Of a stretch of 64,000 nt of DNA, positions 10,734 to 53,880 are shown piece by piece; position 1 is the first letter of the stretch, and each line of letters begins with the position of its first letter. The stretch covers positions 2,144,001 to 2,208,000 of the forward strand of contig OZ253449.1 in NCBI GenBank assembly GCA_965261345.1, read 5' to 3'. The translations under genes were made by a program, and so were the position numbers. The notes beneath the pieces were generated by a model. It was given only the letters and a program-made list of their open reading frames with translations, did not search any database and was not told the DNA's origin. Source of the stretch: Chloroflexota bacterium (GTDB lineage: Bacteria > Chloroflexota > UBA11872 > VXNJ01).

Positions 10734-10775
10734 AGAGCCAGAGCTAGCCAGACTGCTTAGTCAAAGGAAATCTCA

Positions 10776-17204: not shown

Positions 17205-17264
17205 CCGGCGGCGGGCGGGCTCTAGTTGAAAATTGGCCAAGACCAGTGGTTGGAGCTAATTTTT

Positions 17265-30953: not shown

Positions 30954-31421
30954 TTGCTCGAACAGACTTTCGTGTTGCTCAAACCAGATGCTTTACAGCG
31001 ATCGCTGGGAGGCGAGATCATCGCCCGTTTCGACCGCCGCGGCTACCGGTTGGTCGCGCTCAAGATGACCCGGCCGCAGAAAGCCCAGGCCGAGTCCCAC
31101 TACGCCGAACACGAGGGCAAATTCTTCTACAGCGGGCTGGTTGACCACCTTACATCGGGGCCGGCTATAGCGATGGTCCTGGAGGGTCCGTCGGCGGTGG
31201 CCTCGGTTCGGAAAATTGTCGGTGCGACCCGGCCGCCAGAGGCGGATGCCGGAACGATTCGTGGCGATTTCGGACAGTCGCCGCTACGCAACCTGGTGCA
31301 TGCGGCTGATTCGGTTGAAAATGCCGCACGCGAAGCGGCGATCTATTTTTCTCCGGCCGAATTGCTTGAATTTGAGCGCGCCGCAGACAACTGGATATTT
31401 GAACCGGCCGATATGGCCTAA
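30954..31421 (+). CDS. ndk: Nucleoside diphosphate kinase
   Basis: TFVLLKPDA, HYAEH, GTIRGDFG and RNLVHAAD motifs; TTG 30954 follows GAGGA. Confidence 0.95.
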   Translation: MLEQTFVLLKPDALQRSLGGEIIARFDRRGYRLVALKMTRPQKAQAESHYAEHEGKFFYSGLVDHLTSGPAIAMVLEGPSAVASVRKIVGATRPPEADAGTIRGDFGQSPLRNLVHAADSVENAAREAAIYFSPAELLEFERAADNWIFEPADMA

Positions 31422-33715
31422 GTGTTTCCGCCCGACTGCCGGCGGATGACGTTCAGGGCCGATCCGGCCCAGAGCCAGGCGATCTGTTCGTCGTTTAGGG
31501 TTTGGAGCAGCTCGATCTGTTCAGAGGCGCCATCGGGGTGACGAACGCTGGCCAAGACCGGTTGGCCGGGCTTTATCTCCCCCGGGTCAACGATCGTTAT
31601 CTGGTCGCGGCGGCCGATTAGCTCGTAGTCGGCGGGATCGGCGAAGGTGAGCGCCAGGACACCCTGTTTTTTGAGGTTGGACTCGTGGATGCGGGCAAAC
31701 GAACGACAAATTACCACCGCAGCCCCGAGCAGTCGCGGTGACATCGCGGCATGCTCGCGCGACGACCCCTCACCGTAATTTTGATCGCCGATGGCCACCC
31801 AGGTATTTCCAGCGGCGGCGAGCTCGCGGGCAATTTCCGGCAGCGACTGGTCAACTTGCCCGGTAAGTTGATTGAATCCGACCCCCGGCTTTGACCCGAA
31901 GGCATTGTTGGCGCCAATGAACATGTTGTCGGAAATATTGTTCAAATGGCCGCGGAAGCGGAGCCACGGGCCGGCGGCCGAAATGTGGTCGGTGGTGCAT
32001 TGGCCCACCGCCTTGAGCAGAACCGCCATGTCGGCAAATTCGCCCGTGGTGCGACTGGCAAACGGTTCTAGCAGTTGGAGCCGATCGCTGTCGGGCGCCA
32101 CCGCAATCGCAGTCTGACTTCCGTTGGGGGCCAGATATCCGGTACCTCGGGCCAGGAACCCATTGGCCGGCACCTCCGGCGCCGGTTCGGGCGGATTGAG
32201 CCGCACCCCGGCGGATCCCGCGATCGGATCGCGGCGCGGATCAAAGCCCAGCCGTCCGCCGATTGCCATGCTCACGGCAATCTCCGGGCTGGTGATGAAA
32301 TTCATGGTTTGGGGATTGCCGTCGTTGCGACGGGGAAAATTGCGGTTAAACGAGGTAACGATCGAATTACGGGCTGGGACCGGATTGTGAGGAGCGTCGG
32401 GATCGGCCCGCCGCCACTGACCGATGCACGGCCCGCAGGCGTTGGCCAGCACGGTAGCACCGATCGCTTCCAGATCGGCGATAAGTCCGTCGCGCTCCAG
32501 GGTGGCACGTACCATCTCCGAACCCGGGGTGACCAGCAGCGGCGTGGCCACCCGGAGATCGGCCGCCTGGGCCTGGCGGGCTACCTGGGCGGCCCGTGAG
32601 ATGTCCTCGTAGGAAGAGTTGGTGCAGCTACCAATGAGCACCGCCGACAGTTCCTCCGGAAAGCCTTCGGTGGCAATTTCGCTGGCCAGATCCGAGAGTG
32701 GGCGGGCCCGGTCGGGCCGATGGGGGCCAACCACGTGCGGCTCCAGCGCCGAAAGATCGATGTCAATGACCTGGTCGTAGTAGCGATCGGGGTCTGCCGC
32801 GGTTTCGGGGTCGGCAGTTAGGAATTCCGAATTGGCCAGCGCCAGATCGGCGGCGACCGAGCGTTCGGTGGACTGCAGATATGTAATCATCCGCCGGTCG
32901 AGCGGGAAGACCGAGGTGGTAGCGCCGATTTCGGCCCCCATGTTGGTGATGGTGGCCTTACCGGTGCAGGAAATGGATTCGCAGCCTGGCCCGAAGTACT
33001 CAATGATTCGGTTGGTACCGCCGCTGGTTGTTAGCAGGCCCGCCAATTTCAGGATTACGTCTTTGGGAGCCGACCAGCCGCTGAGCGATCCGCTCAGTCG
33101 CACCCCCAGGATCGATGGCGCGAGCAGCTCCCATGGAAAGCCCACCATCACGTCTACGGCGTCGGCGCCGCCGACTCCGATTGCCAGAGTGCCAAGCCCG
33201 CCGGCATTGGGTGTGTGCGAATCGGTACCAATGATCAGCGATCCAGGGACCGCGTAGTTTTCCAGCACTACCTGGTGAATGATCCCAGAACCCGGTTCCC
33301 AGAATCCCAGCCCCCACTGGGCCGACGCCGAGCGCAGGAATGTGAAAACCTCGTCATTTTCAAGCCGGGAACGGGCCAGGTCGGGCGTGGCGCCGATCTG
33401 GGCCCGAATCAGGTGGTCGCAGTGCACGGTAGTTGGGACCTGGGTACGCGCCTGCCCGGCAAGACGGAACTGCAGCAGGGCCATCTGGCCGGTTACGTCC
33501 TGGAGCGCCACCCGATCGGGCCGCAGCATGATCCAGGCTCCCGGTTCCAGCTCGATTGTCTCCGGGTCGTCGGCGTGCGCCCAGAGGATCTTCTCGGCCA
33601 GGGTCAAGGGTCGTCCCGCCCGCCGCCGGATTGTATCGAGGCGCCCGGTCAGCCGACCGTACATTGCCGAAAGGGCCTCGGGGTCGGCACCGGTTTGATT
33701 CATCGCCGCAGACAT
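31418..33715 (-). CDS. acnA: Aconitate hydratase (mitochondrial-like type)
   Basis: HCDH, DSHT, GSCTNSSYED, NACGPCIG, TTDHIS and GEGSSREHAA motifs. Confidence 0.95.
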   Translation of the reverse strand: MSAAMNQTGADPEALSAMYGRLTGRLDTIRRRAGRPLTLAEKILWAHADDPETIELEPGAWIMLRPDRVALQDVTGQMALLQFRLAGQARTQVPTTVHCDHLIRAQIGATPDLARSRLENDEVFTFLRSASAQWGLGFWEPGSGIIHQVVLENYAVPGSLIIGTDSHTPNAGGLGTLAIGVGGADAVDVMVGFPWELLAPSILGVRLSGSLSGWSAPKDVILKLAGLLTTSGGTNRIIEYFGPGCESISCTGKATITNMGAEIGATTSVFPLDRRMITYLQSTERSVAADLALANSEFLTADPETAADPDRYYDQVIDIDLSALEPHVVGPHRPDRARPLSDLASEIATEGFPEELSAVLIGSCTNSSYEDISRAAQVARQAQAADLRVATPLLVTPGSEMVRATLERDGLIADLEAIGATVLANACGPCIGQWRRADPDAPHNPVPARNSIVTSFNRNFPRRNDGNPQTMNFITSPEIAVSMAIGGRLGFDPRRDPIAGSAGVRLNPPEPAPEVPANGFLARGTGYLAPNGSQTAIAVAPDSDRLQLLEPFASRTTGEFADMAVLLKAVGQCTTDHISAAGPWLRFRGHLNNISDNMFIGANNAFGSKPGVGFNQLTGQVDQSLPEIARELAAAGNTWVAIGDQNYGEGSSREHAAMSPRLLGAAVVICRSFARIHESNLKKQGVLALTFADPADYELIGRRDQITIVDPGEIKPGQPVLASVRHPDGASEQIELLQTLNDEQIAWLWAGSALNVIRRQSGGNT

Positions 33716-33874: not shown

Positions 33875-35026
33875 TTGAAGCTGCACGAATACCAGTCCCG
33901 CGACCTGCTCGCCGGTCAGGCCATACCGCTGCCGCCGGCTCGATTGGTCGTAGACCCGGCCGGCGCGGCCGAGGCTGCCGCTGAGCTGGGCGGCCGGGTG
34001 GTGATAAAGGCCCAGGTCCTTTCGGGCGGTCGCGGCAAGGCCGGCGGGATCAAATTGGTTGGCGATCCAGCGGCTGCGGCCCGGTCTGCCGGCAACATCC
34101 TGGGGCGCACGATCGGGGGCCACCTGGTGCAAAAGGTTCTGGTGGCCAAGGCCGTCGATATCGCGGCCGAATATTACCTGGCGGTGCTGCCGGATCGCCG
34201 GTCGCGAAAACTGGTGGTTATGGCCTCGGCGGCTGGCGGCATCGACATCGAACTGACAGCGGCCGAAAACCCGGCGGCGATTCATCGCCGCCGCTGCCCG
34301 GCCGACGGCCAATTGGAGCCGTACCAAGGCCGCGAATTGGCGTTTGATCTCGGATTGCCCAAGGCGCTGGTGGGCCAGTTCGCCCAGATTGCCGCGTCAT
34401 TGGTCAAGTGCCTGCAAATCAACGACGCCTCGCTGGTCGAGGTCAACCCGTTGGTAATTAGCGGCGACCAACTGCTGGCGATCGATGCCAAGATCAGCAT
34501 CGACGATTCGGCACTCTTCCGCCAGCCGGGCATGGGCGCGCTGCGCAATCCGGAGGAAGAATCCGAATCGGAGGCGTTGGCCCGCGAGGCTGGAATCTCC
34601 TATGTGGAGTTGGATGGATCGCTGGGATGCATGGTCAACGGGGCCGGATTGGCGATGGCCTTGCTCGACGTAATAGTGGCTGAAGGCGGCCGCCCGGCGA
34701 ATTTCCTCGACATAGGTGGCGGAGCGGATGCCGACCAGGTTGCCCGGGCCATGCGGATCATCCTTTCCGACCCTTCGGTCCGAGCGGTGCTGGTCAATAT
34801 CTTCGGCGGAATTACCCGCTGCGACGACGTGGCCCGCGGCATCACCGCGGCCCTGGCTGAGATCGACAAGCCGCCGCCGCTAATTTCCCGCCTGGCGGGC
34901 ACCAATCAGGCGGAAGGGCTAGCGATCCTGCGGCAAGCTGGCATCAGCGCCCACCGTGACATGCTCGCGGCCGTGCGGGCGGCGGTGGCCCTGGCCCAGG
35001 GGCCGGCTGAGCGATGCACAACCTGA
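33875..35026 (+). CDS. sucC: Succinyl-CoA synthetase beta subunit
   Basis: KLHEYQ, KAQVLSGGRGKAGG, NGAGLAM and NIFGGITRCD motifs. Confidence 0.96.
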   Translation: MKLHEYQSRDLLAGQAIPLPPARLVVDPAGAAEAAAELGGRVVIKAQVLSGGRGKAGGIKLVGDPAAAARSAGNILGRTIGGHLVQKVLVAKAVDIAAEYYLAVLPDRRSRKLVVMASAAGGIDIELTAAENPAAIHRRRCPADGQLEPYQGRELAFDLGLPKALVGQFAQIAASLVKCLQINDASLVEVNPLVISGDQLLAIDAKISIDDSALFRQPGMGALRNPEEESESEALAREAGISYVELDGSLGCMVNGAGLAMALLDVIVAEGGRPANFLDIGGGADADQVARAMRIILSDPSVRAVLVNIFGGITRCDDVARGITAALAEIDKPPPLISRLAGTNQAEGLAILRQAGISAHRDMLAAVRAAVALAQGPAERCTT

Positions 35027-35883
35027 TGATCGATGCCTCCACCCCGGTCCTGGTACAGGGCATCAGCGGCCGCCAGGGGTCATTCCACACCAGGTTAATG
35101 CTCGAGTACGGCACTTCGGTGGTGGCCGGGGTGGTGCCCGGTCGTGGTGGTCAACGGGTTCACGGGGTCGAGGTTTTCGACACTGTAAACCAGGCAGTTG
35201 AGGCCAGTGGAGCAAGCGCCGGGGTGGTCTTCGTGCCCCCATTTGCGGCGGCCGATGCGGTGTGCGAACAGGCCGCCTCCGGAATAAAGACGATCGTTAC
35301 GATCACCGAGGGAATTCCGGTTCTGGATGCGGCCCGGATGATCAATTTTGCCAATCGCCGCGGCGCCCGCGTTATCGGACCCAATTGCCCGGGGTTGATA
35401 CTGCCGGGCCAGACCAAATTGGGCATCATCCCTGGATCGATCGCCCGTCCCGGCCGGGTCGGAATCGTCTCGCGATCGGGAACGCTCACCTATGAGGTGA
35501 TCCAAGCGCTCACCGATCGCGGGATCGGGCAGGCGCTCTGCCTGGGAATCGGCGGTGACCCGCTGATCGGCTTTACATTCGTGGACGCGCTCGCCGAATT
35601 TGAGGGCGATCCGGGCACCGATGCGATTGTGTTGATCGGCGAAATTGGCGGTCAAGACGAAGAAATCGCCGCCGCCTACATCCGCGAAAAAGTGTCCAAG
35701 CCGGTGGTCGGGTTCATCGCCGGACGCTCTGCCCCGCCCGAACGGCAAATGGGTCACGCCGGCGCCATCGTGGCCGGGGGAATGGGTGCGGCGGTCGATA
35801 AGATCGCGGCGCTGCAGGCCGTCGATGTGCCGGTGGCCCAGCACCCCGAACAAGTGGGCGACCTGGTCGCTACCCGGCTTTGA
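35014..35883 (+). CDS. sucD: Succinyl-CoA synthetase alpha subunit
   Basis: ITEGIP, GPNCPG, SRSGTLTYE and MGHAGA motifs. Confidence 0.96.
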   Translation: MHNLMIDASTPVLVQGISGRQGSFHTRLMLEYGTSVVAGVVPGRGGQRVHGVEVFDTVNQAVEASGASAGVVFVPPFAAADAVCEQAASGIKTIVTITEGIPVLDAARMINFANRRGARVIGPNCPGLILPGQTKLGIIPGSIARPGRVGIVSRSGTLTYEVIQALTDRGIGQALCLGIGGDPLIGFTFVDALAEFEGDPGTDAIVLIGEIGGQDEEIAAAYIREKVSKPVVGFIAGRSAPPERQMGHAGAIVAGGMGAAVDKIAALQAVDVPVAQHPEQVGDLVATRL

Positions 35884-36005: not shown

Positions 36006-37571
36006 TTGATTGAATACGAACTGGTTGTGGTGGGCGGCGGGATCGCCGGTCTCAGGGCCGCCATCGCCGCTGCCGAGGCCGACCTGCGGGTGGCGGTCAT
36101 TTCGCGCACCAACCCAATTGCCCATCAAGACGCAAATCTTCGTGAAGGGTTCAACGCGCCCGACGGCGACCGGCTCAAGAACGCTTTTGCAGCCGATTGT
36201 GTGGCTGCCGGTTGCGGCCTGGCCGATCCCTCAGCGATCGCGGCGGCCGCCGACCGGGCGGTCGGCGAGGCGATTGCGGTCGAACACATGGGGGCGACAT
36301 TTGCCCGATCCGCCGATGGCGGCCTGGACGCCTTTCGCCTGGCCGGCAACTCGGCTGCCTACAGCTTGCAGGCCGGTTGGTGGTCCGGTCGAGCGGTGCA
36401 GAACGCGCTAATCGATCAGGCCGCAGCGTATGCGATTGACATATTTAGCGAATGGCTCGCTCTCGCGGTTGTAACCGACGATGCCGGAGTCTGCGGCCTG
36501 ACCGCGCTCAATATCCGCTCCGGTCAGGTCCAGGCGTTTAGCGCTGGAAACGTCCTGCTCACTGAAGGATCGGTCGGCGGCATCTTCACGACCAGCGGCA
36601 ATCCGCGCTGCGCTATCGGCAGTGGCCAGGCCTTAGCCGCTGCCGTCGGGGCGCCGTTGGTCGATATGGAATTCGTCGAATATTGCGCCGGCCTAAATTC
36701 AACTTCGCCATCAATGAACGGGGCGCTGATAGGCGATGCCGCCACTGTCGCCGCGGCGGCATACACCGGATTGCGCTCCCAACCTGATCCAGCTACTCCG
36801 GGAGGCCTGGCCCGCGCGCTTGATCCGGGCGGATCGACCCGAATCGACTTTTCCGGCAACCGCGAGGAGATTGAGCTGTTCGCCGGCGAAATCGGTCTTT
36901 TGCTCGGATCCGAGCTGTCCACCGAGGTCATTCCATCGGTTGCCTACTGCGTCGGCGGGATTGCTCCCGATACCGCCATCGACGGGCTGTGGGCTGCCGG
37001 CGAGGCGGCCGTCTCGCCGTTGCTGGGAGCGGGTCTGCTCGCGGGCAATACCCTGCTCGACCTCGTTCAGTCTGCCACTGCGGCGGTGATGCAAATTACC
37101 CGGCGGTCAGGCGGGGTGCCCGCGTCGCTGCGCCTAAAAACCCAGGAAGAGATTCAACTCACCTTCAGCGGCGATCGCCAGATCGACACCGCCGTCCTCT
37201 GGGATCGCCTGCGCGCGGTAATGACCCAGTCGGCCGGCCTGGCCCGCGAACGTGATGGCCTTGAGCGTGCCCGCGGCCAGATAGATGAGATTGCCGCACT
37301 TGCGGCGCGGTCCGCACCGGCATTTCCGGGCGCACATTTCAACCTCGAGTTGGTGCGCCTATTGGAGTTGCGCCAAGGGCTGGTTACCGCGGCCGCCATC
37401 GTAGCCGGATCGAGCGCCCGGTTGGAGTCGCGTGGCCCACATCAGCGAGTCGATTTCCCGGGACAATCTGTTGATTTTGATGACCATACTGTTCTGCGCC
37501 GCGGCGATGCTGGTTTCAATGTGCAACGCGAGCTGCGGGTAGGCCGATCGCCGGCCGGAGTTGCCCGATGA
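36006..37571 (+). CDS. SdhA/FrdA-like flavoprotein lacking catalytic residues (putative pseudoenzyme)
   Basis: GGGIAG, DMEF, AAGE and RLESRGxHxRxDFP motifs retained; catalytic His/Glu/Arg positions substituted. Confidence 0.8.
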   Translation: MIEYELVVVGGGIAGLRAAIAAAEADLRVAVISRTNPIAHQDANLREGFNAPDGDRLKNAFAADCVAAGCGLADPSAIAAAADRAVGEAIAVEHMGATFARSADGGLDAFRLAGNSAAYSLQAGWWSGRAVQNALIDQAAAYAIDIFSEWLALAVVTDDAGVCGLTALNIRSGQVQAFSAGNVLLTEGSVGGIFTTSGNPRCAIGSGQALAAAVGAPLVDMEFVEYCAGLNSTSPSMNGALIGDAATVAAAAYTGLRSQPDPATPGGLARALDPGGSTRIDFSGNREEIELFAGEIGLLLGSELSTEVIPSVAYCVGGIAPDTAIDGLWAAGEAAVSPLLGAGLLAGNTLLDLVQSATAAVMQITRRSGGVPASLRLKTQEEIQLTFSGDRQIDTAVLWDRLRAVMTQSAGLARERDGLERARGQIDEIAALAARSAPAFPGAHFNLELVRLLELRQGLVTAAAIVAGSSARLESRGPHQRVDFPGQSVDFDDHTVLRRGDAGFNVQRELRVGRSPAGVAR

Positions 37572-38281
37572 TCGCGCAGCTGCACGTGAATGTTGCGCGC
37601 TACGATCCCGAAGTTGACCGGACGGTGCGCTGGCAAACGTTCCAGGTGCGGCACGAAGCGGGAATGATGGTTCAGGATGCGTTGATCCAGATTCGCGACG
37701 AGCAGGATGGGTCACTGCGTTTTCGCGAAGCCGAAGCGGGCGGATTCTCGGGCCTCGGCGCGGTCGCCTTGAACGGGCGTCCGGTGCTGGCAGTTCGCGA
37801 GGAACTTCCGTCAGATAACCGCGAAATCAGAATCGGCCCGCTCCCTAATCATGGAGTGATCGTCGACCTGGTGGTCGACCTAGAAGTCGGCGACCACCGC
37901 GCGGTGAGCCTTCGTCCCTGGTTGCAGCGGGTCAGCGGCGTTTCCGATGGGCACCCGTCGGCGATGACGCGTGAACAGCTGGACCGACTGCAGCGCAGCC
38001 AATTCTGCAACCGGTGCGGAATCTGTGATGGCGCCCTTCGTTCGACTGGTCCAGATTTTGTGGGTGCTGCGTTCCTGCTAAAGACCTATCGGCTGACGGC
38101 CGACGTGCGAGACGACTTCGACCGCGAGCGAATGATATTGGCGGTCGGCAAAAACGGGCTCTGGCGTGTGGATTCCTCACAATTGGCCGGAGACTGTTGC
38201 CCCTACGGCCTTGAACCATTTGCGCAGATTGATAAGCTCCGCCGCGCTGCCGCGTTAAACGGGTTCACCGACCCGGGCTAG
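37568..38281 (+). CDS. SdhB/FrdB-like protein retaining only the [4Fe-4S] ligands
   Basis: RYDP...DALxQIRDEQDGSLxFR, PLPN..VIVDLVVD, CxxCxxC and terminal CP; ATGA coupling with the upstream gene. Confidence 0.8.
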   Translation: MIAQLHVNVARYDPEVDRTVRWQTFQVRHEAGMMVQDALIQIRDEQDGSLRFREAEAGGFSGLGAVALNGRPVLAVREELPSDNREIRIGPLPNHGVIVDLVVDLEVGDHRAVSLRPWLQRVSGVSDGHPSAMTREQLDRLQRSQFCNRCGICDGALRSTGPDFVGAAFLLKTYRLTADVRDDFDRERMILAVGKNGLWRVDSSQLAGDCCPYGLEPFAQIDKLRRAAALNGFTDPG

Positions 38282-38344: not shown

Positions 38345-39271
38345 ATGCGACCGAAAGTTACCGTTGTAGGCGCCGGTGCCACCGGCGGCTCCACCGCCCG
38401 GCGGGTTGCCGAGCGCGGCTACGCCGACGTGGTGCTAGTTGACATTGTGGCCGGGCTGCCACAGGGCAAAACCCTGGATCTCAACCATGCCGGGTCGCTG
38501 GGCGGGTATCCGCCCAACATCGTCGGCACCAATTCCTACGATCCCTCCGCCGGGTCCGACGTCTGCGTTATCACCTCGGGATTCCCACGCAAACCGGGCA
38601 TGAGCCGCGACGACCTGCTCCTTGCCAATAAAGCGATCGTCGAGCAGGTTACCACCGAGCTGGTGAGCCGATCCCCGGAAACGATCCTGGTCATCCTTTC
38701 CAACCCGATGGATGCCATGGCACAGCTGGCAATGCAGGTATCGGGACTTCCGCGCGAGCGCGTAATTGGGCAGGGTGGAATCTTAGATTCATCGCGCTAC
38801 CGGACCTTCCTGGCATGGGAACTGGGGGTGTCCCCGGCCGACATTACCGGGTTTGTCCTGGGAGGGCACGGCGACACGATGGTCCCGGTACCAAGCTATA
38901 CGACTGTGGCCGGTATGTCGGTTAAAGAGTTGATCGCGCCCGACCGGCTTGCGGCAATAGTTGATCGGACTCGCAACGGCGGCGGCGAGATCGTGGGCCT
39001 GATGAAAACGGGCGGGGCGTTCGAGGCTCCGGGCGAGGCCTGCGCGATGATGGTCGATGCGATCTTGCTCGATCAGAAGCGCCTCTACCCCTGTGCGGTA
39101 ATGCTCGACGGCCAGTACGGGATCGACGGTACGTTCGTCGGGGTTCTGGTCAAACTTGGCGCCGCCGGCGTCGAGCAGATCATGGACTTTCCGTTGAGCC
39201 AATCGGAGTTGGCCGAGCTGCAGCGATCGGCGGCATCGGTCGGCGAATTAGTGGAAATAATGGGAATTTAG
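38345..39271 (+). CDS. mdh: Malate dehydrogenase (LDH-like)
   Basis: VGAG, PRKPGMSRDDL, NPMD, LDSSR and GGHGD motifs. Confidence 0.96.
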   Translation: MRPKVTVVGAGATGGSTARRVAERGYADVVLVDIVAGLPQGKTLDLNHAGSLGGYPPNIVGTNSYDPSAGSDVCVITSGFPRKPGMSRDDLLLANKAIVEQVTTELVSRSPETILVILSNPMDAMAQLAMQVSGLPRERVIGQGGILDSSRYRTFLAWELGVSPADITGFVLGGHGDTMVPVPSYTTVAGMSVKELIAPDRLAAIVDRTRNGGGEIVGLMKTGGAFEAPGEACAMMVDAILLDQKRLYPCAVMLDGQYGIDGTFVGVLVKLGAAGVEQIMDFPLSQSELAELQRSAASVGELVEIMGI

Positions 39272-39713: not shown

Positions 39714-41666
39714 TCAATGTGGAGTGTCGGTTTTAAAGCTCGCTGAATGGCGTCTATCCCACGCCAGCGCGCCCAGCCATCCCGCCAGCGCAACTGCCGC
39801 CAACGAACCGGCAACCCACCGGACACTGCCCACGAGATCTCCCGCCAAATCCTGAACCGCTCGCAGGACATAGTCCGCGGTCAACTGGCTCGTACCGGCG
39901 AACGGTCCGTCGGCGAGGTCGATCATTCCTTCCCGGGCCGCGGAAAATCCGGCCGCGGAGGCGGCTTCAAAGACCGGCCAGAGAAGAATTGTGAGCGTCA
40001 ACGCCGCAATGAACAAAACCGCTGATGCCCACGCAATCCTGCCGGGCCAGCTAACGCCACCTAATAACCCGATTACAACCAACATGCCCAGCGCCACCAG
40101 ATACGAAATCCACCCGTACTGGCGCACGGCCCTGGACGCATCGCCCAATGCCTGCAGCCCTGTCCCTATCGAATCCTTAGAAGCTTCGTCCTCCAAACTT
40201 CCAATCGAAAAGACATAACCGTCGGCAAAAAACGTACGGATGTCGTCAAAATCGGCCAGGTTTCCGCCCGCCGCGAGATCTTCCCGAAGATCTGTTTGGT
40301 CATATGAATACCCTTCGGCCAACAGCCGGCGCCATTCGTCCAAGGCTTTGAGCGCCCCTGGGCCGCCAGCGCTATTTACCACGTCCCGCAGGTGAGATTC
40401 CGAAAACACGACCGAGTCCGGAAGTGGGTCAAGGACCAGGGTCTGAACCAGGCTGGCGGTCCGGGCCGTAACCGAGTCCAGGAGCTGGCTTCTCAGGATT
40501 CCGGGAGGAAGGCAGGCGGGAAGGTCGGGATTTTCCAGCGTTAAGGTCAATTCGCCAAGATCGGGCCCGGATTCACAGTCGGGGAGGGAATTTACAACCG
40601 CTGTGACCTTTTGGTCGGCCAGTCCGGTCAGGCCCAACTGCGCCGCCTGTTTGTTGGGTTCAATCGAAATTTGGGTTGTGAAGCCATCCGACCGTCCCAG
40701 GAGATAGTCGCTGGCGTCCTCGATGAAAATTTCGGCTTGTCGATCGACCAGATCCGGCGGCGCGAACTCGAGCAGCGCGTCGGTGATTTCAGCGCTGGTT
40801 ATTACCTGTCCAAACGGAACCTCCACTCCGACACCCAGGATTGGCTCGATCGCTGGCGCAATAACGTATTGGCTCAGCAGGTCGATGGCGGCGTCGCCGC
40901 CCAGGATCGCCTTGAACTCGGCTGCGGTGGCATCCGTCAGCTCTTCGGTAATGCGGATCTGCACCTCGAAGCCGTCGGAATCGGCGATTAGATACGACGA
41001 AACCTGCCGCACGGAATGCTCGGTCAATCCCGCAATCCATTCAGGGGTGATCACCCGAACCGCGGACTCGGCCAACCGCTCGCTCGCGACCGCATTTCCC
41101 CCGAAGGAAAGGGTCGCAATGTTCGACGCCTCCGTGGAGCTGGCAAACGATTCAATCAATCGGTCGCGAACCAACGGGCGAATTTCGTTTCGGAGAAGCC
41201 ATTCATAAGTGCCCGCCTCACGCAGGAGCTCCAACGACCCGTCGACCATGCCCCGCACCGGCTCAGTGGCGTTGATCCGAATCGCCACCTGATCCTGTTC
41301 CCCGGCAATGATTTGACCGATCGCCAGCGCAATCGGCGCAACGATCGCCTCCAACTTTTGCGGCGAGAGGCCAAGATGCACGGCCTCCAAGATCTGTCGG
41401 TTCGTTAACCCGGATTCGGCAAGAACATTCCGTCGAACATCCACGCCAAGTTCGGCTGGATCGGCAGCACGCACGTCGTTGAGGACCGACGCCAACAAAT
41501 CAACCACCAGAAATTGATAAACACCGCGTTTTTCGAGCTGCTGCGGATAGAAGCTTGGCTTTAGAAATGTGTCGTTTAGTCCGAACACGAAAAGCGCAAC
41601 CATCAGGGTGGGAAGAAGGATCGTCCCCCCAAGGGCAGCTATGGAGCGACGGAATAGCAGCATCAC
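39714..41666 (-). CDS. Hypothetical membrane protein with a large repeat-containing soluble region
   Basis: 650-aa ORF; one N-terminal and about three C-terminal TM helices; internal repeat. Confidence 0.75.
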   Translation of the reverse strand: MMLLFRRSIAALGGTILLPTLMVALFVFGLNDTFLKPSFYPQQLEKRGVYQFLVVDLLASVLNDVRAADPAELGVDVRRNVLAESGLTNRQILEAVHLGLSPQKLEAIVAPIALAIGQIIAGEQDQVAIRINATEPVRGMVDGSLELLREAGTYEWLLRNEIRPLVRDRLIESFASSTEASNIATLSFGGNAVASERLAESAVRVITPEWIAGLTEHSVRQVSSYLIADSDGFEVQIRITEELTDATAAEFKAILGGDAAIDLLSQYVIAPAIEPILGVGVEVPFGQVITSAEITDALLEFAPPDLVDRQAEIFIEDASDYLLGRSDGFTTQISIEPNKQAAQLGLTGLADQKVTAVVNSLPDCESGPDLGELTLTLENPDLPACLPPGILRSQLLDSVTARTASLVQTLVLDPLPDSVVFSESHLRDVVNSAGGPGALKALDEWRRLLAEGYSYDQTDLREDLAAGGNLADFDDIRTFFADGYVFSIGSLEDEASKDSIGTGLQALGDASRAVRQYGWISYLVALGMLVVIGLLGGVSWPGRIAWASAVLFIAALTLTILLWPVFEAASAAGFSAAREGMIDLADGPFAGTSQLTADYVLRAVQDLAGDLVGSVRWVAGSLAAVALAGWLGALAWDRRHSASFKTDTPH

Positions 41667-42613: not shown

Positions 42614-43375
42614 CTAACGCCTGCCGCGAAATACCCGGCCAAGCAATCGCTGTAACGGATCATAGGCCTCATCGGCGACTCGTTCTTTGAGCGGGATTAT
42701 CGCGTTGTCGGTGATCTTAATCCCTTCCGGGCAGATGTCGGTGCAGCATTTGGTTATGTTGCAAAACCCCAACCCGTGGACTCGCTGCAACTCGTCGCGC
42801 CGATCGAGCGTGTCAAGTGGATGCATCTCGAGGGCGGCCGCATAGACCAACAGACGCGGCCCCACGAATTCTTCGTGCAAAGCGCTCGAACGAAGTACGT
42901 GGCATACGTCCTGACAGAGAAAGCACTCAATGCATTTCCTAAATTCCTGGACCCGGTCAATATCGCCCTGCTCCATGCGCCAACCGCCGGCGGCCTGTTC
43001 CTCGGTGGTCTGCGAGCGCGGTTCAAATTTGCGAATCGACTGTTTGGCGCGGTAATTCCAACTGACATCGGCGACCAGGTCGGTAAGGACCGGAAAGGCC
43101 TTCAGTGGAGTAACGTAGATTGGCGCTTCGATGTCCAGTTCGTGGAAACCGGTCATGCAGGCCAGCCGCGGGCGGCCGTTGATCTCCATCGAACAGGATC
43201 CGCATTTGCCGGCCTTGCAGTTCCAGCGACAGGCCAGCGAGGGGTCGGCGTTGGCCTGTATCCAATGCAGGGCGTCGAGGACCACCGTCCCCTCTTCGAG
43301 CGGCACCTGGAAATCCTCGAATCGGGTTTGACCGGCATCGCCGCGCTGGACCCGGAGGGTTGCTTGCTCAGACAT
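42614..43375 (-). CDS. sdhB: Succinate dehydrogenase iron-sulfur subunit (Sdh1-type)
   Basis: CKAGKCGSC...C, CIECFLCQDVC and CNITKCCTDICP motifs. Confidence 0.93.
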   Translation of the reverse strand: MSEQATLRVQRGDAGQTRFEDFQVPLEEGTVVLDALHWIQANADPSLACRWNCKAGKCGSCSMEINGRPRLACMTGFHELDIEAPIYVTPLKAFPVLTDLVADVSWNYRAKQSIRKFEPRSQTTEEQAAGGWRMEQGDIDRVQEFRKCIECFLCQDVCHVLRSSALHEEFVGPRLLVYAAALEMHPLDTLDRRDELQRVHGLGFCNITKCCTDICPEGIKITDNAIIPLKERVADEAYDPLQRLLGRVFRGRR

Positions 43376-43379
43376 GGTG

Positions 43380-45182
43380 CTAGGGCCCGTCGATGATGGC
43401 TTGGAGGTCGGCTGGCGGCTTGGGCAACGGTTCGGTGACCACGATCATTTCACCGCGCGAGTCCTGTTTGACGATTACCGACTTCTCGCTCCATTCGGGC
43501 AGGCTCGCGGGATAGTCGTCGCGGGTGTGGCCTCCACGACTTTCTTTGCGTTCCCGGCCGGCCAGCGCGCTGGCCCGGGCCAGGATCAGGACGTTATGAA
43601 AGTCGAGGGCTTGGTGCCAACCCACGTTGAAGGAGGAACCGCTGGGGATCGGCGCCCGGCTGGCCCAGCTGGCATATTGATCCAGTTCGCCGAGGGCCTC
43701 TTCGAGGTCGCTCGCGCGGCGGATTATTCCGACCTTGTTATCCATCATCGCCTGCAGGCTGCCCAGCAAAGCGAATGGGTTCTCCTTGCCGCGGGCTGAA
43801 AAAGGAGCCAACGCGTCGGCCTGGGCGGCGTCGATAGTCGATTGCGCCGGTTTTACCGGGTGCGGATTGGCCAGTGCCGCCCGGGCGGCGTATTCGCCGG
43901 CGCGCTTGCCAAATACCAGCAGATCGGTGAGCGAATTCCCGCCGAGGCGATTGGCGCCATGCATTCCTCCGGCAGCCTCCCCCGCGGCGAAGAGCCCCGG
44001 TATGCTGGCGGCCTGGGATTCGGACTCAACCCGGATCCCGCCCATGATGTAGTGGGCGGTGGGCCCCACCTCCATGGCGGTCTTGGTGATGTCGACCCTG
44101 GCCAGTTCGGAGAACTGGTGGTACATGGATGGAAGACGTGAGCGGATGTCCTGGGCCGATCGTTGCGAGGCAATATCGAGAAACACCCCACCGTGCGGTG
44201 ACCCCTCGCCGGCATCGACCTGGCGCAGGATTGCCCGCGCGACCTCGTCGCGGGTTAGCAGCTCGGGTGGACGACGGGCCTGTTTGTCGCCGGCCAGCCA
44301 ACGCCGGGTCTCGGCTTCGCCGTCGGCATATTCGCCCTGGAACATCTCGGGCACGTTGTCGAACATGAATCGCTGTCCGGATCGATTTCGCAACACCCCG
44401 CCCTCGCCGCGGACCGCTTCGGTGACCAGAATGCCGCGAACCGATGGTGGCCAGACCATGCCGGTCGGGTGGAACTGGATGAATTCCATGTCGATTAGTT
44501 CGGCCCCGGCCTTCCAGGCCAGGGCGTGACCGTCGCCGGTCCCTTCCCAGGAATTGGTGTTGATCGCCCACGCCCGGCAGGCCCCGCCGGTGGCAATTAC
44601 CACTGATTTGGCGGCGATTGCCAGCATTTTGCCGTCGGATCGCTGGTAGGCGAATACCCCGACAACTCCCGACTCCTCAACCAGCAGACTGGTCACCGCG
44701 CATTCCATGTGAACGGAAATTCCCTGGTGGATGCCGTGGTCTTGGAGGGTCCGGATCATCTCCAGGCCGGTGCGATCGCCAACGTGGGCCAGGCGCGGAT
44801 AGCGATGACCGCCGAAATTGCGCTGCAGGATCAGGCCGTCGGGGGTTCGGTCGAACACCGCTCCCCAGGCCTCCAATTCGCGGACCCGCGCGGGGGCCTC
44901 CTGCGCGTGGATCTGGGCCATCCGCCATTGCCCCAGGAGCTTGCCGCCGCGCATCGTATCGCGGAAATGGACTTCCCAGGAATCGCGCGGGTCGGTGTTG
45001 CGCAGAGCCGCGGCCATTCCGCCCTCAGCCATGACCGTGTGGGCCTTGCCAAGCAGCGATTTGCAGATTACCCCGACGCTGGCCCCCTCGGCGCGGGCGG
45101 CGATCGCCGCCCGCAGGCCGGCCCCGCCGGCCCCGACGATCAGGACGTCGTAGGCGAGTTGTTCGGGCGTCGGCGCATTCAT
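43380..45182 (-). CDS. sdhA: Succinate dehydrogenase flavoprotein subunit (Sdh1-type)
   Basis: KAHTVMAEGG, QFHPTG, TEAVRGEGG, TRDEVAR, PTAHYIMGG and HGANRLGGNSL all intact. Confidence 0.93.
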   Translation of the reverse strand: MNAPTPEQLAYDVLIVGAGGAGLRAAIAARAEGASVGVICKSLLGKAHTVMAEGGMAAALRNTDPRDSWEVHFRDTMRGGKLLGQWRMAQIHAQEAPARVRELEAWGAVFDRTPDGLILQRNFGGHRYPRLAHVGDRTGLEMIRTLQDHGIHQGISVHMECAVTSLLVEESGVVGVFAYQRSDGKMLAIAAKSVVIATGGACRAWAINTNSWEGTGDGHALAWKAGAELIDMEFIQFHPTGMVWPPSVRGILVTEAVRGEGGVLRNRSGQRFMFDNVPEMFQGEYADGEAETRRWLAGDKQARRPPELLTRDEVARAILRQVDAGEGSPHGGVFLDIASQRSAQDIRSRLPSMYHQFSELARVDITKTAMEVGPTAHYIMGGIRVESESQAASIPGLFAAGEAAGGMHGANRLGGNSLTDLLVFGKRAGEYAARAALANPHPVKPAQSTIDAAQADALAPFSARGKENPFALLGSLQAMMDNKVGIIRRASDLEEALGELDQYASWASRAPIPSGSSFNVGWHQALDFHNVLILARASALAGRERKESRGGHTRDDYPASLPEWSEKSVIVKQDSRGEMIVVTEPLPKPPADLQAIIDGP

Positions 45183-45961
45183 GCCGCGATCAAGATCAAG
45201 CGCGGGTCGATGACGGTCTCGGTGGCCACCAGGCGGACGTAGACATCGACCAGAGCGACCCAGATGAGCGAGAACCAGGCCCAGTTGCCGTGGCGCAGGT
45301 TAAAGAATGTCGCGATTTTCCAGAGTCGACCGCGGGTTCGATTCACCAGTGAACAGGAGAAGCAATCGACCCGCCCACCGACCAGGTGGCGGAGCGAGTG
45401 GCATCCCAGTACGTAGCCGCCCAGCGAGACCGCATTAACGACCATGAGCACCGTGCCCAGTCCCACTCCGAAGCCCTCGCTAAAGAAGAAGGCCAGTATT
45501 GCGTCGTAGACGAAGATCACCACCAGGGCCAGCGCGAATGGCAGGGCATAGCGGTGCAGGTTCTGCCAAATCAGCAGTCGGCGCTCGCCCGAATAAGGAA
45601 GGTTGAGGCGGCCGACCGCGCAAGCCGGCGGCGAAAGGAAGTAGGAGCGGTAGTAGGACCGGCGGTAGTAGTAGCAGGTGATGCGAAAGGACAGCGGGGC
45701 CCAGAGGATTAGCAGGGCCGGCGTGCGCAGCCATCCAGGCCACCAATCGGGCCAGACAAACCCGGAAAAATGAGGTGAATAAAAGGGTGATAAATAGGGC
45801 TCGGCGACGTGATGTTCGTTTTGGGCACCCTGCAATATGACCCAACCCGAATAGAGGATGAACGCGCCAAAAATAAGACCGAAACGCAACGGTTCGACCC
45901 ACCATCGGTCAACCCGCAGGGTCTGCCCAAGGCGCGCGTTGGCGGCCGGTATGCTAGCCAT
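45179..45961 (-). CDS. Succinate dehydrogenase membrane anchor (Rv0249c/Sdh1-like)
   Basis: YLSPFYSP, FRITCYYYR, QNLHRY, GCHSLRH and HxxWAWxSL motifs; first gene of the sdh operon. Confidence 0.88.
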   Translation of the reverse strand: MASIPAANARLGQTLRVDRWWVEPLRFGLIFGAFILYSGWVILQGAQNEHHVAEPYLSPFYSPHFSGFVWPDWWPGWLRTPALLILWAPLSFRITCYYYRRSYYRSYFLSPPACAVGRLNLPYSGERRLLIWQNLHRYALPFALALVVIFVYDAILAFFFSEGFGVGLGTVLMVVNAVSLGGYVLGCHSLRHLVGGRVDCFSCSLVNRTRGRLWKIATFFNLRHGNWAWFSLIWVALVDVYVRLVATETVIDPRLILIAA

Positions 45962-46081
45962 GGCGGAAATGCCCCACCTATCGCCTGGGAACGAATGCAC
46001 GAAATCTCCACTTAGGATAGTTTGTGCGGGCTTCCAGATTGGCCGCCGCCGCCCGGCACGGATAAGAAAATTGGGCTACCG

Positions 46082-46819: not shown

Positions 46820-47716
46820 TTGCCATTGAATATAAAAGTTGCCAGCAGTCCGACATCCTGGGGTGTTTCCTTTGCCTCAGATCCGCGCCAGACGCCGTGG
46901 GAGCGGTTCCTGGTCGAGGTCGCGCGGTCGGGTTATCGCTGGATTGAATCCGGCGGCTATGGCTACCTGCCGACCGATCCGACCCGTCTGCGTCCGATCC
47001 TGGCCGAGCACGAACTGGCGATCTGCGGCGGCCGCGTCATGCGGCACTACCTCTTTGACGAAGAACTGCCTTCGATCCGGCTCGAGTGTTTTCAATCGGC
47101 CGAGTTGCTCGCGGCAGTCGGGGCCGAAGCGATCATCCTGATCGAGGGTCTCTATCGGGAAAAGGAAACTGGCAGGCTGATCGATCAGACCGACCTAGAC
47201 GAGGGGCGCTTCAAGCTGCTAGTGGAGCGGGTCGTCGATCTGGCCGGCCAGCTGCGCGAGCGCTTTGACCTAAAGACCTACTTTCACCCGCACGCCGAGA
47301 CCCACGTTCGGACCGAGGAACAGATGGATCGATTCTTCGAATTGGCCGCCGATCCGCAACTGGGCCAGGTCCTCGATACCGGTCATCACGCCTACTGCGG
47401 CGGCGACCCCAATTCCTACATGGCCCGCAATTTCGCCCGCATACCCTACGTCCACCTAAAAAACATCCAACCCCAGGTTCACGCCCGCTGCGAGGCTGAG
47501 GGCATCGGATTTTTGGACAGCGTTCGCGCCGGGGTATTTTGCGAGCCCGAGCACGGTCTCTTCAACCTGCGTGACTTCCACCGTGTGCTCTCCGAAATCA
47601 ACTATTCTGGATACGCGGTTGTCGAGCAGGACCTGTACCCGGTGGCCAATTTCGAGGTTCCCGAACCGATCGCCACTCGCACCCGGCGTTGGCTGGCGGT
47701 CAACGGGTTCGGTTAG
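46820..47716 (+). CDS. IolE/MocC-like TIM-barrel protein (inosose dehydratase-like)
   Basis: PTSWGV, GYGYLPTDP, FHPHAETH, LDTGH, HLK and VVEQD motifs; adjacent to iolD. Confidence 0.8.
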   Translation: MPLNIKVASSPTSWGVSFASDPRQTPWERFLVEVARSGYRWIESGGYGYLPTDPTRLRPILAEHELAICGGRVMRHYLFDEELPSIRLECFQSAELLAAVGAEAIILIEGLYREKETGRLIDQTDLDEGRFKLLVERVVDLAGQLRERFDLKTYFHPHAETHVRTEEQMDRFFELAADPQLGQVLDTGHHAYCGGDPNSYMARNFARIPYVHLKNIQPQVHARCEAEGIGFLDSVRAGVFCEPEHGLFNLRDFHRVLSEINYSGYAVVEQDLYPVANFEVPEPIATRTRRWLAVNGFG

Positions 47717-47734
47717 GCGGGGCGGCCCGCGCGC

Positions 47735-49633
47735 CTACCAGTAGTAGCGCTGGCGCGCCCGTCCGGCCTGGCTGTCGGCTGAGGTCTTGGCCACCACCGG
47801 GTCGTTGGTGACTTCGGCGGCGTAGACATCCCACCAGACGCCGGCCGGCGGCGCGGCGGCGTACTTGTCCATGTCCACCTCGATCAGGCAGGGCCGGCTT
47901 TCTTGCCGGGCTTCATCGAGGGCGGTGTCGAAATCTTCGGCGTTGGCCACCGCCCAGGTGGCCGCCCCCATGCCGGCGGCGATCTGGGCGAACGGGATCT
48001 CGACGAAGTCGCCCAATTCGAGGGTGTAGGACTCCGGATCGCGCCAGCGGAACTCATTGCCCAGGCTGCGGCCGACGGTTCGCCGCTGGAGCGCGTGAAT
48101 CGACTGGTACCCCAGGTTGCGAGTGATGATGACGGTTATCTTGGCCCGTTCCTGCAGGGCGGTTATCAACTCCGACGGGTGCATTAGGAATCCGCCGTCG
48201 CCGATCGAGACGAATACCTCGCCGGGCGGATCGCTCTTGCGGACCCCGATTGCCGCCGGAATTTCGTAGCCCATGCAGGAGTTCCCAAATTCGAGCATTA
48301 TCTTTCGTCCGCCGGTCCCGTTCCAGAGCTTGCACAGGTCACCCACCGGGGTTCCGGCGGCCGCGATCAGAATGTCGCCGGGTTGAGCATGCCGGTTGAG
48401 CACACCGATCATCTGGGTCTGGGTCAGCGGAGCGCCGTTGACCGGTTCTTGCATCGCGGCCACTTCACCAAGCCATTCGCGGCGCGCCAGGCCGGTTTCT
48501 GCCAGCCAGGCCTCCCGACGTCGCACGTCTGCTTGGCGGCAAGCCCGGGTGAGGGCCTCCAGGCTCAGGCGGGCATCGGCGACCACCGGATGGGCGCCCA
48601 GTTTGATGGAGTCGTGCGGGCACACGTTAAGCGAGATGAACCTGACTTCCCGGTTCTGGAAGATGGAATTGGATCCGGTGGTGTAGTCGGCCAGCCGGGT
48701 ACCGGCACAGATGACCAGGTCGGCCCGCTCGGCCGCCTGGGCAGATGCCCTGGTCCCGTTCATCCCGACCCCGCCCAGCAGCAGTTCGGAGTCGTCGTCG
48801 ATGACCGAGCGTCCGGCATAGGTCTCGGCCACCGGGATCCCGAACTCTCTGGAAAATTCGCCCAGCGCTGATTCGGCTTGCGAATAGCGAATCCCGCCGC
48901 CGGCGATGATCAGCGGCGCCTTGGCCGCGGCCAGCATCTGCGCGGCGACCCGGATTGACCGCTCGGTCGGCGGGCGACGTTCTATCACCCAGGTGTGTTC
49001 GCGGAAAAAATTGGTCGGGTAGTCGAACGCCCAATTCTGAATGTCCTGGGTCAGGGCAAGGCAGACTGCCCCGGTTTCGGCCGGATCGGTCAGGACCCGG
49101 AAGGCCTCGGGGAGCGAAAAAAGCAGTTGCTCGGGCCGGCTTATCCGGTCGAAAAACCTGACCACCGGCCGGAAGCAATCGGCGGCTGAAAAATCGTTGT
49201 TGACCGGGTGTTCGATGTCCTGGAGGATCTGGCCTTGGTGACGGGTCGCAAAGTAATCGGAGGGCAGCAGCAGCACCGGAATTCGGTCTATGGTCGCAGT
49301 GGCCGCTCCGGTGATCATGTTGGTGGCGCCCGGACCGATCGAGGTCGTGCAGGCCATCGTCGCCAGCCGTCGCTTGGCCTTGGCGAATCCGGCCGCGGCA
49401 TGTACCTGGGCCTGCTCGTTGAACGGTTGGTGATAGGGCAATCCGGGACCGCCGTATTCGTGGATCGCCTGGCTCAAGCCGGATACGTTGCCGTGCCCGA
49501 ATATCCCCCAGATCCCCTGGATGAAGCGTTGCCGCTGACCGTCGAATTCGCTGTGCTGGGCGTTGATGAATCTCACCACCGCCTGGGCCATCGTCAGCCG
49601 CACGGTCTCATGTGATTGGTAGGTCGTGTACAT
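47735..49633 (-). CDS. iolD: 3D-(3,5/4)-trihydroxycyclohexane-1,2-dione acylhydrolase
   Basis: RLTMAQA, GIFGHGNV, TSIGPGATNM, SCMGYEI, GDG and WWDV motifs. Confidence 0.93.
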   Translation of the reverse strand: MYTTYQSHETVRLTMAQAVVRFINAQHSEFDGQRQRFIQGIWGIFGHGNVSGLSQAIHEYGGPGLPYHQPFNEQAQVHAAAGFAKAKRRLATMACTTSIGPGATNMITGAATATIDRIPVLLLPSDYFATRHQGQILQDIEHPVNNDFSAADCFRPVVRFFDRISRPEQLLFSLPEAFRVLTDPAETGAVCLALTQDIQNWAFDYPTNFFREHTWVIERRPPTERSIRVAAQMLAAAKAPLIIAGGGIRYSQAESALGEFSREFGIPVAETYAGRSVIDDDSELLLGGVGMNGTRASAQAAERADLVICAGTRLADYTTGSNSIFQNREVRFISLNVCPHDSIKLGAHPVVADARLSLEALTRACRQADVRRREAWLAETGLARREWLGEVAAMQEPVNGAPLTQTQMIGVLNRHAQPGDILIAAAGTPVGDLCKLWNGTGGRKIMLEFGNSCMGYEIPAAIGVRKSDPPGEVFVSIGDGGFLMHPSELITALQERAKITVIITRNLGYQSIHALQRRTVGRSLGNEFRWRDPESYTLELGDFVEIPFAQIAAGMGAATWAVANAEDFDTALDEARQESRPCLIEVDMDKYAAAPPAGVWWDVYAAEVTNDPVVAKTSADSQAGRARQRYYW

Positions 49634-49705
49634 TTACGGTGCTCCCGCGCCGGGCTGACTACTAGGCCCTGCCTTTTTTACCTTGCCGGAGCGCCGATTT
49701 GGCGG

Positions 49706-50878: not shown

Positions 50879-51052
50879 TTGAACCGAGGCCAACGTCACC
50901 ATCCGGCCGGTTGGCCGGTTTGTCCGGCGCGGGCCAACCTCCTGGCTGTGGATGTGCTTGGTTAGGCGAATGCTAACGACCGACGCTGGGGGTTTAGGCT
51001 GAAAAACGCCGCGGATATTTAGCGCCCGGTCGGCGACCGGGAAGGCGGCGGC

Positions 51053-51772: not shown

Positions 51773-51941
51773 TGGCGGTTTGCTCCGATAAGACTTTGGT
51801 CGGGCCTGCCCGCGGGACGTTTCCCGCAATCCACGGAGAATCTGTTCCCGTTCGGGCCGGGGCACCTCCAAGTTTGCCCGCAAATTGTCCCCGGTAGGGT
51901 GCTTCAAACCCAAAATAGGGCAAGCCCAAGGAGAACACTAC

Positions 51942-52355: not shown

Positions 52356-52425
52356 CCGATCGCGCCCGCCGACTAACAAGCCCCCAGCTCCTCAACAGCC
52401 TCCCCGAACGCGAAAGTTCTCATCC

Positions 52426-53865: not shown

Positions 53866-53880
53866 CTCAGCGCGGCCGCC

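Follow-up and report, generated by a model that had tools for sequence, protein, structure and literature searches.

A succinate dehydrogenase-like gene pair of uncultured Chloroflexota that keeps the ligands of a single [4Fe-4S] cluster and is probably out of respiration

A stretch of 64,000 nucleotides (nt) from the genome of a Chloroflexota bacterium (assembly GCA_965261345.1, contig OZ253449.1, positions 2,144,001 to 2,208,000; hereafter the window) carries, between the genes for succinyl-CoA ligase (sucCD) and malate dehydrogenase (mdh), two adjacent genes, sdhA' and sdhB', whose products are homologous to the flavoprotein and the iron-sulfur subunit of succinate dehydrogenase (SDH, complex II). 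SdhB' retains the complete ligand set of the [4Fe-4S] cluster and lacks those of the [2Fe-2S] and [3Fe-4S] clusters, and SdhA' has lost residues that act on the dicarboxylate substrate. The reading that we favour, and to which we give somewhat better than an even chance, is that the pair is a soluble, retired head of complex II with an accessory role, in which the lone [4Fe-4S] cluster is probably structural.

SdhB' belongs to the SdhB/FrdB sequence family across both domains. Residues 7-106 match Pfam Fer2_3 (63.5 bits), SdhB/FrdB chains of complex II in the PDB align over about residues 4-231 (E values down to 5e-27), and the NCBIfam model TIGR00384 (dhsB) scores 137.4 bits, above its cut-off of 88. 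In contrast, the protein falls far under the cut-off of all NCBIfam equivalog models, no Fer4 or 4Fe-4S dicluster model matches it in a Pfam scan, and a protein atlas search returned generic FrdB/SdhB clusters only. According to an account of Chloroflexus aurantiacus SDH (PMC12663545), the [4Fe-4S] cluster is bound by the first three cysteines of motif 1 and the final cysteine of motif 2, and the other motif cysteines (the fourth in motif 1, the first two in motif 2) bind [3Fe-4S], in agreement with the assignment used in an earlier, sequence-only reading of the window. On this basis, SdhB' carries none of the four [2Fe-2S] ligands, all four [4Fe-4S] ligands (C147, C150, C153, and C211), and none of the three [3Fe-4S] ligands; the claim of that reading that the whole ligand set of one cluster is left while the other two sets are gone thus holds. 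Moreover, the strings that it had quoted (the cysteine-free [2Fe-2S] motif, CNRCGICDGAL, and the motif 2 remnant) were all found at the positions given, and the intact SdhB with CKAGKCGSC...LAC to which it had compared them is present on the opposite strand of the window (Table 1).

In particular, E56, S61, G64, and V76 stand where the [2Fe-2S] ligands used to be. In motif 1 (C147-x2-C150-x2-C153-x3-L157), an aliphatic residue takes the place of the [3Fe-4S] ligand, and the proline and quinone-site tryptophan motif that follow are gone: where mitochondrial SdhB reads CPSYWW, SdhB' reads LRS..TGPD. In motif 2 (W199...C211-P212), the [3Fe-4S] ligand positions are occupied by V201 and A207, and the residue that follows the first motif 2 cysteine in the mitochondrial alignment is likewise replaced. 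Both CPSYWW and the latter residue are taken here to serve the quinone site. An additional cysteine, C210, is limited to the window protein and one relative (P0001). Measured against the iron-sulfur subunit of a functional complex II, SdhB' therefore lacks the [2Fe-2S] ligands, the [3Fe-4S] ligands (or those of a second [4Fe-4S] cluster at that site), the quinone-site motifs, and a membrane-anchor partner (see below), and has the ligands of the usual [4Fe-4S].

The same pattern is found throughout a small family. A word-indexed search of 5.8 billion proteins gave 40 matches at E <= 1e-5, the first 10 of which (P0001-P0010) are 46-95% identical to SdhB', are 236-237 amino acids long, and have Fer2_3 as their only domain. 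A contig scan with one genome per species gave 19 loci: L001-L006 encode full-length orthologues (48-68% identical), L017 has a fragment of 59 residues at a contig end, and the remaining 12 encode SdhB proteins with 11-13 cysteines and at most 32% identity. L001-L006 and L017 all come from uncultured Chloroflexota, on contigs of up to 2.1-2.4 Mb. Among the 14 distinct full-length members (the window protein, P0001-P0010, L002, L004, and L006; P0008 is identical to L005), C147, C150, C153, and C211-P212 are always present, and these five residues are invariant in 11/11 aligned members; in 6 of the 10 database members the four ligands are the sole cysteines of the protein. The [2Fe-2S] positions read E, S, G, and V (no ligand out of four) in 12 of the 14 members, and the third cysteine survives as a relic in P0010 and L006 (one of four); in the alignment of 11, E56 and S61 are invariant and G64 and V76 are each found in 10. 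The [3Fe-4S] positions vary across the family (L/V/I/E at 157, V/L/I/F at 201, and A/V/S at 207), and the first motif 2 cysteine, at position 201, is retained in P0008 only. In total, the 11 aligned sequences agree at 80 of the 237 positions.

The ratio of nonsynonymous to synonymous substitution rates (dN/dS) was estimated by the Nei-Gojobori method from codon alignments of the window and L001-L006. Four pairs were unsaturated (dS 0.36-0.92), so that the usable values (Table 1) describe pairs of relatives and not the window gene itself; some open reading frame (ORF) starts were over-extended by the script, and gapped columns were ignored. Both sdhA' and sdhB' are clearly under purifying selection, and the values for sdhB' lie in the range of those for sucD, mdh, and the intact sdhB. 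The chance that exactly the [4Fe-4S] set survives a random loss of 7 of 11 ligands is 1/330 (C(11,4)), a figure that refers to one or a few evolutionary events and not to 14. The sequence-only reading had argued that random decay is unlikely to produce such a pattern and had named scattered cysteine loss among orthologues as the observation that would speak against it; no such scatter was seen, and the same four cysteines in 14/14 members, together with a dN/dS of 0.093-0.124, support its proposal of selection for a single ligand set in an electron wire cut on both sides. Two losses went unremarked in that reading, namely those of the SdhA' catalytic residues and of the quinone-site motifs of SdhB'.

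The closest relatives outside the family suggest that the clusters were lost in steps. When 1.84 billion representatives were searched exhaustively with a profile, 3567 matched at E <= 0.001, headed by two representatives of the family (470 and 370 bits) and followed by P0041 (212.7 bits); all others scored at most 166.7 bits. P0041 and P0308-P0315 form a sister family of nine Chloroflexota members (61-100% identical, 247-255 amino acids) that has all four [2Fe-2S] cysteines, the first three cysteines of motif 1, and the last of motif 2. Val or Ala stands in for the fourth motif 1 cysteine, and Trp for the second motif 2 cysteine, so that one of the three [3Fe-4S] cysteines is kept (in 8/9 members). 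A motif 1 without the fourth cysteine and an ADVRD stretch are common to both families. The SdhB' family is monophyletic (99 in the Shimodaira-Hasegawa-like approximate likelihood ratio test, SH-aLRT), and its sister relationship to the P0041 family is supported by an SH-aLRT value of 91 in IQ-TREE (54 rows) and by a value of 97 in FastTree (102 rows, a set that left out five two-stretch hits). The sister family is probably a soluble two-cluster form. Since it has the [2Fe-2S] and [4Fe-4S] sets but not the [3Fe-4S] set, parsimony suggests that loss of the [3Fe-4S] cluster and the quinone site preceded that of the [2Fe-2S] cluster.

The ligand columns were also tabulated for 189 aligned sequences, with the assignment taken from a single MAFFT alignment. 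All 11 cysteines are present in 143 of these, and 15 carry Asp at the third [2Fe-2S] position. Every one of the 11 full-length variants outside the family that have lost [2Fe-2S] or [3Fe-4S] ligands keeps the entire [4Fe-4S] set, which is incomplete solely in short or partial matches (P0037, P0039, P0040, P0117, P0155, P0180, and P0185). Ligand loss akin to that of the sister family is also seen in four scattered relatives (P0085, P0112, P0120, and P0133).

The partner flavoprotein SdhA' has decayed in parallel at its active site. It scores under every NCBIfam cut-off, including those of the SdhA, FrdA, and NadB models (at best 205.7 bits against 567.3), and was compared with its homologues by alignment to E. 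coli FrdA and in a 33-sequence alignment, in which its family comprises the window protein and P0188-P0201 (n = 15). The columns of FrdA H232, T244, E245, R248, R287, and R390 are replaced in 15/15 members; in E. coli FrdA, H232, T244, E245, R287, H355, and R390 are the residues that bind the dicarboxylate or shuttle protons. The capping region, measured from the H232 to the H355 column, has shrunk to 84-85 residues versus 97-138 in catalytically intact relatives, the nearest of which (P0203-P0210) are about 540 amino acids long and about 30% identical. At the column of the histidine that binds FAD (flavin adenine dinucleotide) covalently, where the alignment is ambiguous by one residue, 13/15 members have His, the window protein has Gln, and P0201 has Pro; SdhA' of L006 lacks this histidine as well as T244, E245, R287, H355, and R390. 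The motifs of the FAD-binding fold that SdhA' shares with canonical sequences (GxGxxG, the G188 region, the Gly-Glu of AAGEAA, G332-E333, a GxN motif, N348, and ESRGxHxRxD) are retained, which makes FAD binding plausible. Family-specific conserved motifs surround the former flavin site. Of all genes in the block, sdhA' evolves fastest (51-60% identity, versus 80-83% for Mdh).

The two genes are embedded in a conserved tricarboxylic acid (TCA) cycle locus. In 6/6 full related loci, a divergent aconitase gene (acn) precedes sucC-sucD-sdhA'-sdhB'-mdh, and an intact sdhB-sdhA follows on the opposite strand. Gaps of 122 nt (sucD-sdhA') and 63 nt (sdhB'-mdh) separate the pair from its neighbours, and a consensus scan found no terminator-like site within either; the scan as a whole ran at shuffle level, with 2 promoter-like sites (1.4 expected) and 2 terminator-like sites (5.5 expected). 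No membrane-anchor gene lies between sucD and mdh among the window ORFs or in the compared loci, and Rfam and transfer RNA (tRNA) scans of the window gave five tRNAs only, none inside the locus. The intact sdhCAB, about 4 kb from sdhA'B', encodes an SdhB with all 11 ligand cysteines and an SdhA with all catalytic residues. At the same place, L006 (12583-15089) has an intact SDH of a different type, 32-34% identical to that of the window; thus, the two branches have different working enzymes and a common A'B' pair. The position of the pair between sucCD and mdh also brought to mind a replacement for fumarase, no gene for which was found among the 38 window ORFs scanned (of 53 with at least 200 amino acids), yet this idea is unsupported: four cysteines are kept, and the pocket residues of the flavoprotein are gone. 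Hydratase-type clusters use three cysteines.

Two further observations concern the neighbouring genes. No Pfam or NCBIfam model matched a 650-amino-acid ORF that separates mdh from the intact sdhB; because only 18-34 nt lie between those two genes in L002-L005 (about 1 kb in L001), this ORF looks like an insertion specific to the lineage of the window. Split ORFs (aconitase, sdhA, sucC, sucD, or sdhA') occur in L004 (3841-6125 and 12481-14347) and L017 (44-5991), through either assembly frameshift errors or real decay, and both loci were used with caution.

What these losses would mean for electron transfer can be read from the canonical enzyme. According to PMC12663545, the redox centres of complex II lie in line (FAD, [2Fe-2S], [4Fe-4S], and [3Fe-4S]), with about 9.8 Å between FAD and [2Fe-2S], hops of at most about 10.6 Å each, and a quoted limit of 14 Å. 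Without a [2Fe-2S] cluster, FAD and [4Fe-4S] would be approximately two hops apart and hence past this limit. Because the [3Fe-4S] ligands and the quinone motifs are gone, electrons would have no exit; because the dicarboxylate residues of SdhA' are gone, they would have no entry, and any wire would be left without a source. Without entry or exit, and with the wire broken between them, the pair is predicted to be unable to act as a succinate:quinone oxidoreductase and is probably out of respiration.

We propose that SdhA' and SdhB' are made together, as the overlap of stop and start codons suggests, and probably also with SucCD and Mdh, and that they would form what is left of the hydrophilic head of complex II, a soluble two-subunit relic that neither interconverts succinate and fumarate nor reduces quinone. 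SdhA' would keep the FAD-binding fold but have lost the substrate clamp and the residues of the proton shuttle, while respiratory work would be done by the intact sdhCAB. The central [4Fe-4S] site most likely persists because the ferredoxin-like C-terminal domain folds around it, and its general persistence in degenerate relatives likewise points to a structural role in that domain. The lone cluster is thus probably structural and possibly a sensor; a structural cluster could secondarily tie the stability of SdhB' to O2 or iron. Purifying selection would then act on a non-respiratory, TCA-linked accessory role, such as scaffolding or regulation.

Several points weigh against this proposal. The loop that once held the [2Fe-2S] cluster is among the most conserved stretches of SdhB' (10 of 13 residues invariant at positions 50-62), which suggests a specific new function there that a relic with a structural cluster leaves unexplained; indeed, this conservation is accounted for neither by the retired-head reading nor by the alternatives considered below. 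In SdhA', 157 of 521 positions are invariant across the 15 members, and the H355 column is retained in 13/15 (the window protein has Ala), so that a new active site may have arisen. In addition, the sdhB' pairs that include the window are saturated (dS > 1.2), and their ratios of 0.14-0.21 are less reliable. Co-transcription of sucCD-sdhA'B'-mdh is probable, judging from the short gaps and the lack of consensus terminators. Cluster binding, FAD binding, the heterodimer, co-transcription, and the accessory role are all predictions, the binding being read from sequence, and all members of the SdhB' family come from uncultured genomes.

An alternative that we regard as rather doubtful is that the lone [4Fe-4S] cluster is the working part of the protein and that SdhA'B' senses O2, nitric oxide (NO), or iron, the state of the cluster governing how the pair binds the neighbouring TCA enzymes or how stable these are. 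The sequence-only reading leaned this way. [4Fe-4S] clusters do serve as elements of stability or sensing in some non-redox proteins, and the proposal is consistent with a complete ligand set that is kept while all that electron transfer needs is lost, with the location of the genes inside a TCA operon in 6/6 loci, where sucCD and mdh flank them, and with the strong conservation of the surface loop formerly holding [2Fe-2S]. However, Pfam and NCBIfam scans of the pair revealed no DNA-binding or signalling domain, four cysteine ligands leave no open iron site, and the [4Fe-4S] cluster of canonical SdhB is buried between the other two and not obviously exposed (PMC12663545). Moreover, degenerate SdhB relatives generally retain [4Fe-4S], so that its retention needs no special explanation by sensing; since the set is always kept in full-length variants that have lost other ligands, a structural role accounts for the selectivity no less well than sensing does. 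A related and unlikely variant is that SdhA'B' is an iron-sulfur gated pseudoenzyme that would bind neighbouring enzymes (SucCD, Mdh, or the working Sdh) and switch or stabilise them depending on its cluster state, by a logic like that of aconitase/IRP but derived from succinate dehydrogenase.

It is equally unlikely, in our view, that SdhA' is a neofunctionalised flavoenzyme with another substrate and a soluble acceptor, to which SdhB' would be merely a structural subunit. The retained FAD-fold motifs, the 157 invariant positions, the conserved motifs near the former flavin site, and a dN/dS of 0.14-0.19 are what such an enzyme would be expected to show; against it stand the capping region, down to 85 residues in the window protein, the replacement of all known dicarboxylate-binding or protonating residues in 15/15 members, and the poorly conserved covalent-FAD histidine column (Gln in the window, Pro in P0201, and absent in L006).

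We consider it distinctly improbable that the four cysteines hold no iron-sulfur cluster and instead bind zinc, form disulfides, or serve folding only. Iron binding by SdhB' is predicted from its residues, and the Pfam 4Fe-4S dicluster models no longer match it, both of which leave room for this view; yet C-x2-C-x2-C ... C-P is the exact canonical [4Fe-4S] set with its proline in 11/11 aligned members, and the same set is found in the sister family alongside all four [2Fe-2S] ligands. Finally, the idea that the two genes are decaying pseudogenes left behind after the intact sdhCAB took over, to which the lost catalytic and ligand residues and the rapid evolution of SdhA' might point, is scarcely credible given intact frames of a constant 236-237 amino acids in all 14 full-length members, dN/dS values of 0.09-0.19, and the same gene order across lineages as distant as 46-48% identity.

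Compared with canonical SdhB/FrdB (1NEK_B, 1KF6_B, mitochondrial SDHB, and C. aurantiacus SdhB), SdhB' shares the two-domain architecture, the [4Fe-4S] set with its proline, and a gene directly downstream of an SdhA-type gene; unlike them, it lacks the [2Fe-2S] and [3Fe-4S] ligands, the quinone motifs, an anchor gene, and a partner with catalytic residues. The sister family (P0041 and P0308-P0315), its nearest relatives, differs in keeping the [2Fe-2S] set. Natural variation in cluster complement is also known from the non-classical SdhB of type E, where a second [4Fe-4S] takes the place of the [3Fe-4S] cluster, and unusual forms turned up among the compared loci: SdhB proteins of Dehalococcoidia and Poribacteria (L008-L016, L018, and L019; match at about 10001-10970) have 317-322 amino acids, all clusters, and about 80 additional, conserved residues at the C terminus, and are encoded directly 3' of a gene for an SdhA of about 555 amino acids, with no sucCD context in the four loci compared from among L008, L011, L015, L018, and L019. 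Both the type E and the long enzymes still have three clusters and a flavoprotein that works, whereas SdhB' has two sites deleted. Split SdhB of Euglenozoa, whose two halves reportedly keep all clusters and the function between them with no loss of ligands, has in common with SdhB' only an unusual SdhB gene structure. In yeast, according to a review of non-canonical complex II assemblies (PMC10238741), the SDHD paralogue Tim18 works with SDHC (Sdh3) in the TIM22 complex, where complex II paralogues with altered cofactor content have a non-respiratory, structural job. Among the assemblies covered there, this may be seen as the nearest conceptual precedent, although Tim18 and Sdh3 are membrane subunits of a eukaryote and sdhA'B' encodes a hydrophilic head in a bacterium. 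No description of an SdhAB pair with such cofactor loss was found in that review or in searches of one full-text library of non-subscription literature.

The pair matters for annotation and for protein biochemistry. Since SdhB' passes the generic SdhB model (TIGR00384) and pipeline names are vague ('FAD-binding protein' for the SdhA' member P0192, '2Fe-2S iron-sulfur cluster-binding protein' for the sister member P0311), metabolic reconstructions could count a second, nonworking succinate dehydrogenase/fumarate reductase. Taken together, the SdhB' and sister families suggest that clusters were lost in order from a three-cluster wire, in which the central [4Fe-4S] site is never lost and the flavoprotein site decays alongside; they thus amount to a natural experiment on which cofactors serve folding and which serve function. 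SdhB' may also provide a scaffold with a single, spectroscopically isolated [4Fe-4S] cluster of predicted low potential, which is hard to study alone in the normal enzyme. If the pair does serve the TCA cycle as a regulator or scaffold, it would be a new kind of bacterial pseudoenzyme.

Table 1. Features of the window (positions counted from its first letter); dN/dS values come from four unsaturated pairs of relatives, and scores are given against model cut-offs
Feature	Coordinates	Strand	dN/dS	Description
sdhA'	36006-37571	+	0.141-0.186	521 amino acids, SdhA/FrdA homologue; Pfam FAD_binding_2 and Succ_DH_flav_C
sdhA'/sdhB' overlap	37568-37571	+		TGA of sdhA' overlaps ATG of sdhB' as ATGA
sdhB'	37568-38281	+	0.093-0.124	237 amino acids, SdhB/FrdB homologue; only the [4Fe-4S] ligand set present
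Former [2Fe-2S] loop of SdhB'	37718-37795	+		Residues 51-76, RFREAEAGGFSGLGAVALNGRPVLAV, without Cys
Motif 1 of SdhB'	38006-38038	+		Residues 147-157, CNRCGICDGAL
Motif 2 remnant of SdhB'	38162-38203	+		Residues 199-212, WRVDSSQLAGDCCP
acn	31418-33715	-		Aconitase, divergent, upstream of sucC; TIGR01340, 958 bits (825)
sucC	33875-35026	+	0.158-0.261	Succinyl-CoA ligase; NCBIfam equivalog, 436.8 bits (370)
sucD	35014-35883	+	0.101-0.128	Succinyl-CoA ligase; NCBIfam equivalog, 387.2 bits (336)
mdh	38345-39271	+	0.063-0.100	Malate dehydrogenase; TIGR01763, 408.2 bits (351.85)
650-amino-acid ORF	39714-41666	-		Between mdh and intact sdhB
Intact sdhB	42614-43375	-	0.081-0.114	NF009052, 371.5 bits (256)
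Intact sdhA	43380-45182	-		NF005866, 897.5 bits (819)
Third ORF of intact sdh	45179-46000	-		273 amino acids; no Pfam or NCBIfam match
Transketolase, two ORFs	10776-12721	+		N-terminal half 10776-11705, C-terminal half 11702-12721
Short-chain dehydrogenases	17226-19300	+		Best match NF004847, about 330 bits each
Inositol-catabolism-like cluster	46820-54876			iolE-like 46820-47716, iolD 47735-49633, iolG 53881-54876
Sulfatase	52270-53865			Within the inositol-catabolism-like cluster

Elsewhere in the window, a cluster resembling those for inositol catabolism includes a sulfatase gene, a transketolase is encoded as two overlapping ORFs, and two short-chain dehydrogenase paralogues lie in tandem.

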